From Gemmatimonadota bacterium (GTDB taxonomy: Bacteria; Gemmatimonadota; Gemmatimonadetes; Gemmatimonadales; GWC2-71-9), in NCBI GenBank assembly GCA_039591655.1, contig JBDHDE010000027.1, forward strand, positions 1 through 35,872: 35,872 nucleotides of DNA, given 5' to 3'. A model generated the notes under the pieces. The model had not been told where the DNA came from. It worked only from the letters and a program-made list of their open reading frames with translations, and ran no database searches. Shown in pieces: positions 4,062 through 30,652 of this stretch. Numbering within the stretch: position 1 is the first letter of the stretch; every line of letters begins with the position of its first letter. The translations under genes and the position numbers were made by a program.

Positions 4062-4868
4062 ATGCAGCTCCGTTACGGGTCCCTGATTGCCGTGGCCGTG
4101 ATTCTCATCATCGGGGTCGCGGTCCTCGCCATTGGTCCGTCAGTCTTTTCCCGGGCGCAGCGGGACTACCGGGAGCAGTTGGAGGCCGCCACGACTCACG
4201 GCGAGTGGGTGAGGGTCGCCGGGGCCGGGGGGGACACTGTGGTGGGCTACCTTGCCTACCCCGAGCGCCCCGATCCGGCGCCCGGCGTGATCGTCATCCA
4301 CGAGATCTTCGGGCTTACGGATTGGGTCCGCACGGTGGTGGACGACTTCGCGGCGCGGGGCTACGTAGCCATCGCGCCGGACCTCCTGTCACGACGCGGC
4401 GGGACCCCGAGCCCCGACGAGGCGCGGCGCCTGATCAGCGAGCTGCCGCGGGACTCCGTCTGGGTGGATCTGGATGCCACCTTCGAGTACCTGCGCTCGC
4501 TGCCCGCCGTACGGGGCGAAGCCATCGGCGTCATCGGATTCTGCTGGGGCGGCAGACGCTCGTTCGGCTACGCCGCTCAGAACCCCCGGCTCCGCGCGGC
4601 AGTGGTGTGCTACGGCTCGACACCGGGGCCCGAGGCCTTGAGCCGCATCGAGGCGCCGGTCCTGGGCGTGTACGCCGAGAATGACGCGAGGATCAGCGAG
4701 GAGATCCCGCAGACCGTGGCGGCCATGCGGGACCTGGAGAAGCGCTACGAGTACGCCGTCTATCCGGGGACGGGACACGGCTTCCTGCGGCGGGGAGAGC
4801 CCGCCGGGCAGGTCGAGCGCGGCTGGACGGATATCTTCGCGTTCCTGCAGGAGACGCTGTGGTGGTGA
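4062..4868 (+). CDS. Dienelactone hydrolase family protein with N-terminal membrane anchor or signal
   Basis: VIHEIFGL, APDL, GFCWGG nucleophile, END and GHGF triad motifs; RBS GGGAG upstream. Confidence 0.92.
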   Translation: MQLRYGSLIAVAVILIIGVAVLAIGPSVFSRAQRDYREQLEAATTHGEWVRVAGAGGDTVVGYLAYPERPDPAPGVIVIHEIFGLTDWVRTVVDDFAARGYVAIAPDLLSRRGGTPSPDEARRLISELPRDSVWVDLDATFEYLRSLPAVRGEAIGVIGFCWGGRRSFGYAAQNPRLRAAVVCYGSTPGPEALSRIEAPVLGVYAENDARISEEIPQTVAAMRDLEKRYEYAVYPGTGHGFLRRGEPAGQVERGWTDIFAFLQETLWW

Positions 4869-4877
4869 CTACGCCCT

Positions 4878-6254
4878 CTATCCCCTGCCGAACGTCACGA
4901 TGGTCAGAAACGCCTGCCACGCCTTCGGCATCATGAAGTAGCTCACGACGAGCAGCAGCACGGGGGTGAGGTAGCGTACGAAGACCGCCCAGATCTGCCT
5001 CGCCGCGGGATTCTCGAAGCCCTTGGCCAATTCGGCGTCCGCCGGACCGATCAGCCGGTATCCCACGAGTATGGTGGTGAAGAACCCGCCGACGATGAGC
5101 AGGAAATTGCCCACAAAGGTGTCCGCGGCCCCCAGGAAGTCGATGTTGAACGCCGCCGGCAGCCCCCCGAGCGCGATGAGGAAGCCGAACACCAGCGCGG
5201 CCTCCTTCCGCCGCCAGCCCCACCCGTCGATGATGGCCGCCACCACGACCTCCAACAGCGAGATGGCAGAGGTGAGGGCGGCGAAGAACAGCATGATGAA
5301 GAACGCGGCGAGCACCACGTTCCCGAAGCCGCCCAGGCTCTGGAGTCCCGTGGGCAGCGCGATGAAGAGTGTGCCGACGGTGTTGTCGGAGATCTCGCCG
5401 CCCAGGCCGATGGTGGTGCCCAGGCCGAAGTGGAAGATGATGGGGAAGATTACGAGTCCGGCGATGAACGCTACGCCGAAGTCCGCCAGCGCCACGGTCG
5501 CCGCTTCCCTGGCCAGGTTCTCCTCAGAGCGGAGGTACGACGCGTAGGTCATGAGCGCGCCCATACCGAGGCTGAGGGAGAAGAACGCCTGCCCCGCTGC
5601 GAGGCTGATGACGTTGGGATCGAGTAGCTCACCGAGTTGCGGCCTCAGGTAGTAGCCATAGCCCGCCCCTGCGTCGCTCAGGGTGGCGGCCCATGCGGCC
5701 AGGCCCACCAGCAGCAGGAACAACACCGGCATCAGGATCAGGGCGGTGCGCTCGAGGCCCCGCTTCACGCCGGCCACCACGATGGCCACGGTGATCACCA
5801 TGAACAGCAGGTGCGACGCGATGGCCGGAAAGCCGGTGGCGACGGATTGGAAGTAGGCGCCTGCGTCGGTGGGGATCGCCTGCCGCACCGCGTCGAACGC
5901 GTAGCGCATGGTCCAGCCGGCGATCACCGAGTAGTACGACAGGATGCCGAAGCCGCAGAACACGAACAGCCACCCCAGGGGTGCCCAGCCCTCCCCCCCC
6001 AAGCGCTTGACCGCCACCAAAGGAGACTGCTGGGACATGCGGCCCACGATGAACTCCGAGGTCATCAGCGGGACGCCGATGACGGCGACGAAAAGCAAGT
6101 ACAGCAGCACGAAAGCCGCGCCCCCGCCCTCGGCGGCCACGTAGGAGAAGCGCCACATGTTGCCGAGGCCGACCGCCGAACCGACGGCAGCGAGAATAAA
6201 GCCGGCCCGTGTCCCCCATGAATCGCGCCGGGGTGTCGCCGCGGGAGCCGTCAT
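4878..6254 (-). CDS. Sodium-dependent transporter, NSS/SNF family
   Basis: GFILAAVGSAVGLGNMWRF, SYYSVIAGW, GQAFFSLSLG, FFAALTSAISLLE; multiple TM segments. Confidence 0.95.
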   Translation of the reverse strand: MTAPAATPRRDSWGTRAGFILAAVGSAVGLGNMWRFSYVAAEGGGAAFVLLYLLFVAVIGVPLMTSEFIVGRMSQQSPLVAVKRLGGEGWAPLGWLFVFCGFGILSYYSVIAGWTMRYAFDAVRQAIPTDAGAYFQSVATGFPAIASHLLFMVITVAIVVAGVKRGLERTALILMPVLFLLLVGLAAWAATLSDAGAGYGYYLRPQLGELLDPNVISLAAGQAFFSLSLGMGALMTYASYLRSEENLAREAATVALADFGVAFIAGLVIFPIIFHFGLGTTIGLGGEISDNTVGTLFIALPTGLQSLGGFGNVVLAAFFIMLFFAALTSAISLLEVVVAAIIDGWGWRRKEAALVFGFLIALGGLPAAFNIDFLGAADTFVGNFLLIVGGFFTTILVGYRLIGPADAELAKGFENPAARQIWAVFVRYLTPVLLLVVSYFMMPKAWQAFLTIVTFGRG

Positions 6255-26747: not shown

Positions 26748-27617
26748 CTATTGGTAGAGCGTGCCCGTGTTCACCACCGGCTGGGTGCCCCGGTCCGAAC
26801 ACAGCACCACCAGCAGGTTGCTCACCATCGACGCCTTCCGTTCCTCGTCCAGCACCACGATCGCCTTGTTGGACAGCTGATCGAGGGCCATCTCCACCAT
26901 TCCCACGGCGCCGTCCACGATCTTGCGCCGCGCAGCGATGATGGCGCTCGCCTGCTGGCGCTGCAGCATCGCGTGGGCGATCTCCGGTGCGTAGGCCAGG
27001 TGGCTGATGCGGGACTCGATCACCTCCACGCCCGCCTTGTCGAGCCGGTCTTGGATCTGCACCTGGAGCTTCTCTGCGATCTGGGGAGTGTGGGTGGTGA
27101 GAGCCATGTCGTCCGTCTCGTGCGCGTCGTACGGGTAGTTCACGGCAAGCCCCCGCAGGGCCGCCTCACTCTGCACGTGGACGAACTCCTCGTAATCGTC
27201 CACCTCGAACAGGGCCTCGGCGGTGTCGATCACGCGCCAGACGACCACGCAGGCCACCTCGATCGGGTTGCCCGTCCGGTCATTCACCTTGAGCTTGCCG
27301 GTCTCGAAGTTGCGGATGCGCACCGAGACCTTCCGCTTCGTGTAGAACGGGTTGGCGTAGCGCAATCCCGGCATCTTGCAGGTGCCTACGTAGGAGCCGA
27401 ACAGCTGCAGCACCCGGGCCTCGTTGGGGTTCACGATGAAGAACCCGGCATAGGCGATGGACAGGACGGTGGCCACCACGCAAGACGCGATGATGCCGAA
27501 GACCGACTCGGCGACGATTGCCCGGACCAGCCACCAGATGGTGAAGGCGCTCGCCGCGAGCAGGACGAACAGGGCGAGGTAACCCGATGCGACAGCGCGC
27601 TGCTTCTCGCGGATCAT
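26748..27617 (-). CDS. SPFH/band-7 domain membrane protein
   Basis: Two TMs, [50 protein letters not shown]. Confidence 0.93.
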
Positions 27618-27632
27618 TGAAACCTCCTGCGG

Positions 27633-27672
27633 ACAGTATCAATATGATATCATATTGATACTGTTACGTCAA
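27633..27672 (-). promoter_or_regulatory. SPFH operon promoter overlapped by a perfect 32-bp palindrome
   Basis: TTGACG (27672-27667)-17 nt-TATCAT (27649-27644); ACAGTATCAATATGAT|ATCATATTGATACTGT at 27633-27664. Confidence 0.85.
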
Positions 27673-28097
27673 GGGCTACGCCCGGACTCGGGCGAGCGTC
27701 CCGACAGCCGCGCGGCATGAATCAGGTACACTGCCGCCGCCAGCAGCAAGGGGGAGGAGTAGGTGCCGGGGATGATCCGCCCGGTGGCCAGCGATGCCCC
27801 GAGGTGGCCCAGGCCGTTCACGAACATGAGGCCGCCGAGAGCGTAGGACACGGGGCGCATCCAGCGCCAGCCGCGGAACGCGCCTACCGAGAGCGACAGC
27901 AGGAGCACGATCCCCACAACGAGGCCGCCCAGCCAGACATCGAACCGGAACACCGGTGGGAAGGGGAGCCCCAGGCGCTGGCGCATGCTCTGGGCAAGGG
28001 GATTGTAGAACGCGAGGAACTCCCCGGCGGCCTCATCCGCCACGTGTATCGCCAGCGCAAGGGCGAGAGCGATCCAAGCCATCCCCCAGTGACGCAT
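27669..28097 (-). CDS. HXXEE-like integral membrane protein
   Basis: MRHWG start overlaps the upstream stop (TGATG); HVADE, NGLGH, PGTYSS; about 4 TMs. Confidence 0.75.
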   Translation of the reverse strand: MRHWGMAWIALALALAIHVADEAAGEFLAFYNPLAQSMRQRLGLPFPPVFRFDVWLGGLVVGIVLLLSLSVGAFRGWRWMRPVSYALGGLMFVNGLGHLGASLATGRIIPGTYSSPLLLAAAVYLIHAARLSGRSPESGRSP

Positions 28098-28621
28098 CAG
28101 GCGTTGAGGATGCGGAGGTAAGCCTTCCACGGACCCACTGCGTCGGCGTACTGCCGCGCCATCGCCCGCGCGACCTGCGCGAGGTGACCCAGGTCGTGGG
28201 CCACCCAGGTAGAGAGGTGCTGTCTCAGGGTGACCCGCCCGAGCTCCGGGTGGCGGCCTGTACGGTCCAGGTCCGCAGCGCTCAAGCTCCACCCCGTGAG
28301 CGTCTCCAGGTTCGCTTCCCGCAGGGCGGCGAACTCGTCCAACAGCTCCTCGAGCGGCCTTCCCTTGGACGACTCGAACTGGGCGAAGCGATCGAACGGC
28401 TCGAACGTGCGGTCCTCGCCGTGCTCCAGGATGATCCGGGCTCGGGGGATCCAGTCGGTGCGCTCGCCGTGTATCAGGTGCCCCACGACGTCGTACGGAC
28501 TCCACGTGTGGGGACCCTCGGTGGCCTTTGCCCAGGGTGCCGGGAGGTCGCGCAACAACGCGCCAAGCGTGCCTGGCGTGCGTGCCAGGATCTCGAGCGC
28601 GTCGTCGAGGCGGTACTGCAT
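28097..28621 (-). CDS. DinB/YfiT-like family protein
   Basis: LARTPGTL, WSPYDVVGHL, GRHPELGRVTL, WVAHDLGHLAQ (His triad). Confidence 0.9.
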   Translation of the reverse strand: MQYRLDDALEILARTPGTLGALLRDLPAPWAKATEGPHTWSPYDVVGHLIHGERTDWIPRARIILEHGEDRTFEPFDRFAQFESSKGRPLEELLDEFAALREANLETLTGWSLSAADLDRTGRHPELGRVTLRQHLSTWVAHDLGHLAQVARAMARQYADAVGPWKAYLRILNA

Positions 28622-28674
28622 GATGGATCGGCTCCCACAGCGCGCCGGCCGGCTTGCGCCGGCCGCCGGCGGGT

Positions 28675-29142
28675 CTAGCGGCGCTCGTAGACCGTGGTCT
28701 GGCCTTCCTCGTCGAAAGTGAGGATTTCGTAGTGCTCGGCGGGTCGGTCGGGGCTCTCCATGCCCGGCGAGCCGATGGGCATCCCCGGGACGGCGATGCC
28801 GATGACGTCGGGCCGCTCCTCCAGCAGTCGCCGGATCACGTCGGCCGGGACGTGGCCCTCGACCACGTACCCGTCAACCACTGCGGTGTGGCAACCCTCG
28901 AGTTGACGCGGGACAGCATGCTCGGCCTTCACCGACGGCAGATCGGCCACTTCGTGCGTCGTGACCTCGAAACCATTCGCTTGTAGGTGAACCACCCACT
29001 GGTTGCAGCAGCCTCACGTCGGGGTCTTGTAGACCACGACTGCGGGGCTCTGCGCGCTCGCCTGTGTGAAGACCACGCCGGCGGCGGCGGCACCCGTCGC
29101 CAATACGGCGCCCAGCAGCAGCGCGCGACCTTTCGCTGTCAT
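28675..29142 (-). CDS. DUF411 metal-binding protein with in-frame TGA (probable selenocysteine, UGCC motif), 155 aa
   Basis: Signal peptide + VYKTPT-TGA(29016-29014)-GCCNQWVVHL..CHTA..YVVEGHVPA..GIAVPGMPIGSPGME. The two track ORFs (29014..29442 and 28675..28995) are in the same frame. G-rich RBS before ATG 29142. Confidence 0.88.
28981..29016 (-). promoter_or_regulatory. Candidate bacterial SECIS element
   Basis: mRNA UGAGG-cugc-UGcAACCA-GUGGG-UGGUUCA-CCUaCA: stem-loop right after UGA with a G-rich apical loop (folded by eye). Confidence 0.6.
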
Positions 29143-29197
29143 CGGTTCCCCCCTGGTCTGAGTTGGCGGCACCGCTCGGAGCGACGCCGTCCCGTTA

Positions 29198-30652
29198 CTA
29201 CCCCACGTAGAGATCGATGATGCGCTCGATGGCCCGACGACACACGCGACAGAACCCCCGCATGTTGCGCGTGAACATGATGCAGTCCACCTCGGACCGG
29301 TACAGGCCCCGCGCCTCATAGGCCGCGCCCTCGAACGCGCCCACCTTGCCGGCGTTGGGCGTCGAGGAGAGCATCTGTGTCTCGATCTCCCGCTGCTCTC
29401 GGAAGAGAGCATCATAATCGGCTTCCGAGGCGTTGGAGTCAATGAGCCGCTGCCGCCGCTCCCGGATCAGCCGCGCGTGCTCTTCGAACTCCTGCTTGTT
29501 CCAGGACGTGGGAAGTGGAGTGCCGGCCTCGACCAGATCTCGCCACTTGAGCTGGGCCGGATCGTGCAACGCCGTGACGTTGGCTTCCCAAGGCTCCGGG
29601 TGCTCCTCGCCGCCGGTCTCGTACGCTACTGACGACGTGTAGTACTCGTCTGCCAGGCCCGCGAAGTGGTGGCCGAACTCGTGAACGAAGACGTAGTCCG
29701 AGAACTCCGAGTCGACGGCGCTCACTGCCTGCCAGTTGTAGATCCCGCCGCCGCCGTACTGCGCGCCGTTCACCAGGATCGCCACGAACTCGTATGGTGC
29801 CGCCGACAGCACGTCCCGCAGGGTGCGGTTGTCGGGAGTCAGCAGGTACCGCTCGCTGTCGAAGATGCCGTACTGCGTGGAGAGCGGCGTGCGGCGCCAG
29901 CGCTCGGAGTGCGGTCGGGTCACCCCGGAGGCCGGAGAGGGCAAATCGATCCCCCGGACGTTGAAGTCCGACTTGCGGCTCCGGAATGGCTCGTAGGAGA
30001 ACAGTCCATCGATGAGCCGCTCGGCATCGGCGTGCAACTTCTCCTTTTCCTCGGCCGTGTACCCCACGCCCAGGACCACCAGGTCCACCTTCTCGCTCGG
30101 GGGGCCGTGCTCGAACAGCGTCCAGACCTCGCCCCGCGCCTCCAGGTCTGCCGGGTTGACGAAACGCGAGCCGGGGTCCACCTCGAACGTGGTGAGCTCC
30201 ACGAAAGCGCCTCCCTCGGATCGCTTCCGGAGGACGACCTTCACTGGCTGCCTCGGCCAGGGGAAGCGCAGGGACTCGTGAAAGGTCCGGTGCAGATTCT
30301 TGGCCTCCCCCGTGGTCTCCCATTCCCCGTACAGGGAGGCGAAGCCCCGGGAGTAGAGGAGCCTGCCGCTGGCTGCATCGATGACCTCGAAGAAGTACTT
30401 GCCGAAGTTGGTGTCGTCGACGAGGCGGACCCCGCTGCCGGCCCAGGCGCCATCCGATACGACCCGGTCCAGGCTCACGATCTCCCCGCTGGCGTCACCG
30501 GTGTGGTAGTAATCCACGCGCATCGTCTTGTCGACGAAGAAGTCGTCGAACGCGACTTGCTGTGCCGAGAGAGGTGCCGCCGCAAGCCACGCGAGCATCA
30601 GCGAAGCCACCAGCTTGTATGGGCGCACCGTTCCCTTGCTCATTGTCTTCAT
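29198..30652 (-). CDS. Peptidase M64 (IgA peptidase) family protein with N-terminal domain
   Basis: Signal peptide; YGGGGIYN, HEFGHHFAGLADEYY, EPWEANVT, GAFEGA..CIM..FCRVC. Confidence 0.92.
   Translation of the reverse strand: MKTMSKGTVRPYKLVASLMLAWLAAAPLSAQQVAFDDFFVDKTMRVDYYHTGDASGEIVSLDRVVSDGAWAGSGVRLVDDTNFGKYFFEVIDAASGRLLYSRGFASLYGEWETTGEAKNLHRTFHESLRFPWPRQPVKVVLRKRSEGGAFVELTTFEVDPGSRFVNPADLEARGEVWTLFEHGPPSEKVDLVVLGVGYTAEEKEKLHADAERLIDGLFSYEPFRSRKSDFNVRGIDLPSPASGVTRPHSERWRRTPLSTQYGIFDSERYLLTPDNRTLRDVLSAAPYEFVAILVNGAQYGGGGIYNWQAVSAVDSEFSDYVFVHEFGHHFAGLADEYYTSSVAYETGGEEHPEPWEANVTALHDPAQLKWRDLVEAGTPLPTSWNKQEFEEHARLIRERRQRLIDSNASEADYDALFREQREIETQMLSSTPNAGKVGAFEGAAYEARGLYRSEVDCIMFTRNMRGFCRVCRRAIERIIDLYVG

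Follow-up and report, generated by a model that had tools for sequence, protein, structure and literature searches.

The window, the whole 35,872-nucleotide stretch of DNA that was analyzed, carries on its minus strand a gene of the DUF411 (CopG) family in which a single in-frame TGA interrupts an otherwise continuous reading frame. The gene and its associated features are as follows.

28675..29142, minus strand: predicted Sec-CopG (DUF411) gene with the TGA read through, 155 codons (sequence, Pfam and PDB match)
29148..29154, minus strand: AGGGGGG, purine-rich and like a ribosome-binding site, 5 nt ahead of the ATG (sequence)
29053..29142, minus strand: likely signal peptide, residues 1-30 (judged by eye)
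29014..29016, minus strand: in-frame TGA at codon 43, predicted selenocysteine, aligned to Cys13 of the 6WIS chain (homologue alignment)
29005..29016, minus strand: U-G-C-C motif, CxCC in the Cys forms (homologue comparison)
28983..28999, minus strand: candidate SECIS hairpin GUGGGUG-GUU-CACCUAC with a 7 bp stem and a G-first triloop, 21 nt past the UGA
28759..28902, minus strand: Pfam DUF411 core, residues 81-128, with invariant C84, H85, H97, M121 and M128

The frame runs from the ATG at 29142 to the TAG at 28677-28675, with the TGA at 29016-29014, in the context VYKTPT*GCCNQW, as its sole internal stop. The read-through protein, in which the motifs CHTA, EGHVP and PGMPIGSPGME are all intact, scores 95 bits against Pfam DUF411 (PF04214; cut-off 27), and no other DUF411 copy was found in the genome (95% complete). 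The initial annotation had described just such a frame, broken once and with the remainder of the domain unharmed, and both statements are confirmed on the sequence. Its expectation that standard annotation would split the gene is likewise borne out, as an identity look-up in a protein collection found the 42-residue piece that precedes the TGA and not the read-through form (a record bearing U would escape such a look-up). By eye, the leader shows K4, R6, a hydrophobic core and ASA at residues 28-30, and other TGA forms have comparable leaders. Several TGA forms of the same genus (L010-L016) have instead a lipobox-like leader (LAAC, LTAC or VTAC), unlike the A-x-A without Cys found here; judging from these leaders, membrane anchoring of the TGA-form protein may differ within the genus. 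A promoter scan returned a single weak site, which falls within the upstream gene (29442-29414), and gave no terminator. The public sequencing runs that best match this stretch are marine sediment metagenomes.

A base-call error at 29014-29016 is very unlikely, because the contig of one public run (X2, possibly the source campaign and so not independent) covers the whole stretch with three differing letters, none of them at these positions, and because the TGA recurs in many other genomes. Three further runs (X5, X6 and X7), compared at the level of contigs, gave no near-identical contig bridging the TGA. Among 61 related genomes, 40 have a DUF411 match; one TGA is present in 14 of the 42 match rows, and extraction from 30 loci places all 14 at codon 43. 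Nine of the 10 genomes of the genus have the TGA in this position, and orthologues that are 57-73% identical share it. Across the best 80 loci in genome_contigs, codon 43 is TGA in 21, TGC in 45 and TGT in 14, with TAA and TAG in none. Removal of five duplicates left 105 distinct homologues, 32 of them TGA forms and 73 Cys (TGC/TGT) forms. The TGA forms come from at least five phyla, with record titles that name Gemmatimonadota, Acidobacteriota, Methylomirabilota/Rokubacteria, Chloroflexota and a Syntrophobacteraceae genome, and in all 32 the codon is preceded by P-T and followed by G-C-C. The check that the initial annotation had proposed, an alignment of the TGA with Cys and conservation on both sides of it among homologues, thus came out in favor of recoding, and its placement of the TGA at the first Cys of the DUF411 motif agrees with the alignment to Cys13 of the CGCC of 6WIS.

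Broader samples give a similar picture. Sequences from the same genus indicate Gemmatimonadota as the phylum. In a sample of that whole phylum, 237 of 301 genomes match DUF411, and the 150 match rows listed (with 105 further rows) include 18 with one TGA and none with TAA or TAG, a count made per row and not by codon position; the unpublished genome G188 enters this tally only. A metagenome pattern permitting TAA, TAG, TGA or TGG at codon 43 matched at least 120 stretches, and among the 80 matches listed the codon is TGA in 79 and TGG in one. This last homologue (L135) has Trp at the position otherwise occupied by Sec or Cys. The 32 TGA genes among the distinct homologues end in TGA (20), TAG (11) or TAA (one), so that the terminal stop varies while codon 43 stays TGA. 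Over the 65 codons past the TGA, comparison with this gene gives dN/dS values of 0.09-0.30 for 12 of 13 pairs (dS 0.9-1.8); the thirteenth pair (L046, 0.91) is invalid, as an indel breaks the ungapped comparison. Three genomes (G002, G108 and G181) have a TGA form together with a second, stop-free DUF411 copy, and one genome of the same genus (G001) has a Cys form only.

The genome encodes the machinery for the insertion of selenocysteine. Its selA, selB and selD each score over the cut-off, selD itself containing an in-frame TGA, and one tRNA-Sec(UCA) scores 77.6 bits against a cut-off of 47 and is the only tRNA with a UCA anticodon that was found. A second Rfam tRNA-Sec match just above the cut-off (contig C2) is a tRNA-Ser(CGA) according to ARAGORN. 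The same program also called a tRNA with a four-base anticodon loop (gtga) at G000:C98:3236-3333(-), possibly a false call. As the initial annotation had held, TGA is otherwise an ordinary stop: 267 of 567 long training ORFs of the genome end in TGA and TGG is in ordinary use, which together rule out a genome-wide reassignment of the codon. Its selenocysteine reading is supported by this machinery and by the hairpin described below, and none of the circumstances it had named as telling against that reading (missing Sec machinery, a TGA unique to this assembly, a base-call error) arose, the assembly from a public run also carrying the TGA. Within the phylum, selA is present in 26 of 26 TGA-carrying genomes tested, and the TGA occurs in 0 of 16 selA-negative genomes that have DUF411. 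This co-occurrence test is weak because most of the phylum has selA (55 of 61 and 67 of 80 genomes) and because kin are not independent, a caution that applies equally to its Fisher p of 0.02.

Published criteria for bacterial SECIS elements comprise a loop of 3-9 nt, a stem of 4-16 bp, a G in the first two loop positions, a spacing of 16-37 nt and a minimum free energy at or below -7.5 kcal/mol (PMC13188914). The CopG hairpin (loop GUU, 7 bp, 21 nt) falls within all of these limits, with a borderline energy of -7.5 kcal/mol as a bare 17-mer and -9.0 kcal/mol with flanks. A simple rule (a stem of at least seven pairs and a loop of 3-5 nt starting with G, at positions 19-28) fits 18 of the 32 TGA forms and 36 of 78 metagenome TGA forms, compared with 3 of the 73 Cys forms and, among the 1138 true TGA stops in the genome, 20; these rates are somewhat flattered because the rule was set after this hairpin and a few others had been viewed. 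Mean local folding energy is -7.5 in the TGA forms versus -3.6 in the Cys forms, and RNAalifold finds a consensus stem at the hairpin position in the former that is absent from the latter. Stem cells are paired in 79% of cases among TGA forms versus 60% among Cys forms, with slight covariation (4 cells). As the 60% pairing in Cys forms indicates, the hairpin is partly a by-product of the codons for W-V-x-H-L, and the wider region shows no excess of folding over shuffled sequences (z -0.08 to 0.26). The residue encoded by the loop is G, V, A or S in 28 of 32 TGA forms versus 8 of 73 Cys forms, 49 of which have D or E there, a shift that would be expected if the protein had sacrificed a residue for the RNA signal.

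A genome-wide screen with a six-pair version of the rule and a coding filter left 43 TGAs, the top ranks of which are occupied by the CopG gene and eight genes from known selenoprotein families.

G000:C3:63467(-): SelD
G000:C51:430(-): FdhA
G000:C29:403(+): SelW-like
G000:C33:10478(+): AhpD-like
G000:C52:14299(-): AhpD-like
G000:C20:44299(-): CMD-like
G000:C6:64128(+): PrdB/GrdB-like
G000:C20:30651(+): arsenite methyltransferase

Each of these eight has a hairpin of 6-8 bp with a G-first loop at positions 21-26, and the likely selenoproteins of the genome, CopG included, would number at least nine. C47:8886, one of nine hairpin candidates examined further, resembles a shadow frame and was set aside ahead of the NCBIfam scan. 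Among the metagenome TGA forms, a large subgroup with U-G-C-C-x-A-W-I/M (L131, L133, L137, L162, L172, L174, L176 and similar) fails the G-triloop rule but has folding energies of about -8 to -10 kcal/mol, suggestive of a second SECIS shape in this subgroup.

Trees built from 105 rows and 120 columns are compatible with a single origin of the TGA forms, with repeated origins and with transfer; Sec/Cys labels change 13 and 12 times on them versus about 27.6 times when shuffled, and a single clade of TGA forms is not rejected (p-AU 0.31).

Comparison with characterized proteins points to a particular metal site. The read-through protein matches PDB 6WIS/6WJE over residues 34-152 (E 8.8e-36), with the TGA falling on Cys13, the first Cys of CGCC. 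The 6WIS structure is that of Pseudomonas aeruginosa CopG (Hausrath et al. 2020), described in the portions of the literature consulted as a periplasmic, thioredoxin-like protein that binds a tetranuclear copper cluster by means of CxCC and a pair of methionines, with copper oxidoreductase as its proposed role (PMC7558416, PMC8456105). Like that protein, to which it is about half identical over residues 34-152, the predicted protein retains x-C-C, CHT, EGHVP and Met-x6-Met; unlike it, there is a TGA codon where CxCC has its first Cys, a SECIS-like hairpin with an altered loop residue follows, and there is no copper-resistance cluster. Rhodobacter capsulatus CutG offers a second comparison: the sections of PMC8456105 consulted give C40xC42C43 and M120x6M127 there, corresponding to U43xC45C46 and M121x6M128 here, where CxCC occurs as the Sec variant only (U43-G-C45-C46), whereas CutG is all-Cys and is encoded in the cutFOG operon with a multicopper oxidase. 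All 32 TGA forms and all 73 Cys forms have C45, C46, C84, H85, H97, M121 and M128 without exception. For the mature part, with Cys replacing Sec, an AlphaFold model has a mean pLDDT of 95.4 and a predicted order of strand-helix-strand-helix-strand-strand-helix, consistent with a thioredoxin-like fold plus a C-terminal extension. The CopG metal site thus appears intact, with Sec at the first ligand position and copper binding suggested by homology. The initial annotation, which proposed a periplasmic metal or redox protein, referred to the family as DUF411 and did not name CopG.

The genomic setting is of a different kind. In the window the CopG gene lies between genes for a peptidase M64 and a DinB-like protein (DinB_2), as it does in most of the genus, with no copper gene adjoining. 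The order peptidase M64, CopG, DinB-like, SPFH (26748-30652, minus strand) recurs in most same-genus loci, and we know of no functional link among the four. The linkage to copA, cueO or cusCBA that is usual for CopG, which is typical and not defining, is absent here. Of the 32 TGA loci, 30 were scanned (with 87 of 96 neighbor ORFs listed), and a single one has copper genes as neighbors; as the scan covered TGA forms alone, this scarcity may not be specific to Sec forms. The exception (L088) adjoins a multicopper oxidase and a CusB-like gene (4070-5533 and 1243-1662). Elsewhere in the genome of the window, a Cu-type P1B ATPase and multicopper-oxidase domains are encoded on other contigs.

Taken together, the in-frame TGA of this CopG/DUF411 gene is very likely decoded as selenocysteine. 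In the mechanism envisaged, SelB with Sec-tRNA would bind the downstream hairpin and insert Sec at codon 43; in the absence of selenium, translation would end after a 42-residue leader. In the protein, which is likely exported, U-G-C-C, Cys-His, His and Met-x6-Met would hold a copper cluster as in Pseudomonas CopG, selenium would replace the sulfur of the first cysteine at the predicted copper site, and the protein might interconvert Cu(I) and Cu(II) or hand copper on. Given recoding, a CopG-like copper role is the probable one, by analogy with the characterized proteins, and the full reading of a Sec-decoded, likely exported, copper-binding CopG is likely to be correct. The chances are about even for the broadest statement, namely that these proteins form a widespread and uncatalogued family of exported selenoproteins in Gemmatimonadota, Acidobacteriota, Methylomirabilota/Rokubacteria and further bacteria of soils and sediments, in which Sec directly coordinates a multinuclear copper cluster, making this a natural Cu-Se enzyme site, and a conserved acidic residue was given up when the SECIS element was carved from the first helix.

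The main rival accepts insertion of Sec and differs as to function: the protein would be a stand-alone periplasmic thiol/selenol-disulfide oxidoreductase acting through U43 and C46 in a thioredoxin fold, or a binder of some other soft metal or metalloid, and not part of copper resistance. It draws on the UxxC spacing of U43-G-C-C46, common among thioredoxin-fold selenoproteins (Table 1, PMC13188914), on a weak glutaredoxin match over residues 35-74, on the gene's place outside any copper cluster and on the part of PMC8456105 consulted, where motif mutants of R. capsulatus CutG were without effect on CutO activity. This function is nonetheless unlikely; the whole CopG site is kept, because C45, C84, H85, H97, M121 and M128 are invariant across TGA and Cys forms alike, and the copper-linked neighbors of L088 and the copper ATPase and oxidase domains elsewhere in the genome also speak for copper.

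Two further explanations deny selenocysteine altogether. That the TGA is a true stop, leaving either a pseudogene or a split gene that restarts at GTG 28995, is very improbable. A GTG does lie 7 codons past the TGA, here and in many TGA forms, gene callers have recorded the 42-residue piece, and a distant partial match (G053) has an internal TAG. Yet purifying selection downstream, evident from the low dN/dS, makes a pseudogene unlikely, and several TGA forms are without a start codon within the next 11 codons. Any restart would also leave unexplained the invariant G-C-C that precedes it and would yield a product without signal peptide and motif, and neither TAA nor TAG ever replaces TGA at codon 43 in the 30 related-genome loci, the best 80 genome_contigs loci or the 80 metagenome matches listed. 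Reading of the TGA as Cys or Trp by a near-cognate or suppressor tRNA could accommodate the single TGG among the metagenome matches listed and the failure of about half of the TGA forms (14 of 32, and 42 of 78 from metagenomes) to satisfy the hairpin rule. This too has very little probability, given that the sole UCA-anticodon tRNA found scores as tRNA-Sec, that TGA is a normal stop in this genome and that the hairpin matches those of the eight known-family selenoprotein genes beside which it ranks.

The selenocysteine-containing CopG would join a set of predicted selenoproteins with links to metals. A 2026 catalogue of 119 families includes an E1-E2 cation ATPase with UxxC, a CopZ-family 2Fe-2S protein, the SO_0444 Cu/Zn transporter, a mercuric transport protein and MbdU, along with Grx/Trx UxxC proteins (Table 1, PMC13188914). 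As with the metal-related members of that table, Sec here stands in for Cys within a metal or redox motif and was recognized from Cys/TGA pairing and a SECIS element; unlike this case, those belong to families other than DUF411/PF04214, and DUF411, PF04214 and CopG are absent from the table. DUF411/CopG is likewise absent from the new-family table of deep-Sep and the four supplements searched, these being the parts of that work consulted (PMC12013277). Full-text searches of the open-access literature returned nothing on DUF411 with selenoprotein and, by title, nothing relevant on CopG with selenocysteine. No NCBIfam model (June 2026) exceeds its cut-off for the read-through protein. The gene is therefore apparently an uncatalogued selenoprotein form of the characterized copper protein CopG. 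New predicted selenoprotein families turn up regularly, which limits the surprise. This one would enlarge the prokaryotic selenoproteome by a family whose genes are cut short by gene callers, so that CopG is undercounted in many metagenome-assembled genomes. To our knowledge, selenocysteine at a copper site is a setting that has hardly been studied. With closely related Sec and Cys versions, which at times seem to share a genome, and a Cys prototype whose copper-cluster structure has been solved, CopG offers a clean natural pair for probing the role of selenium at such a site.
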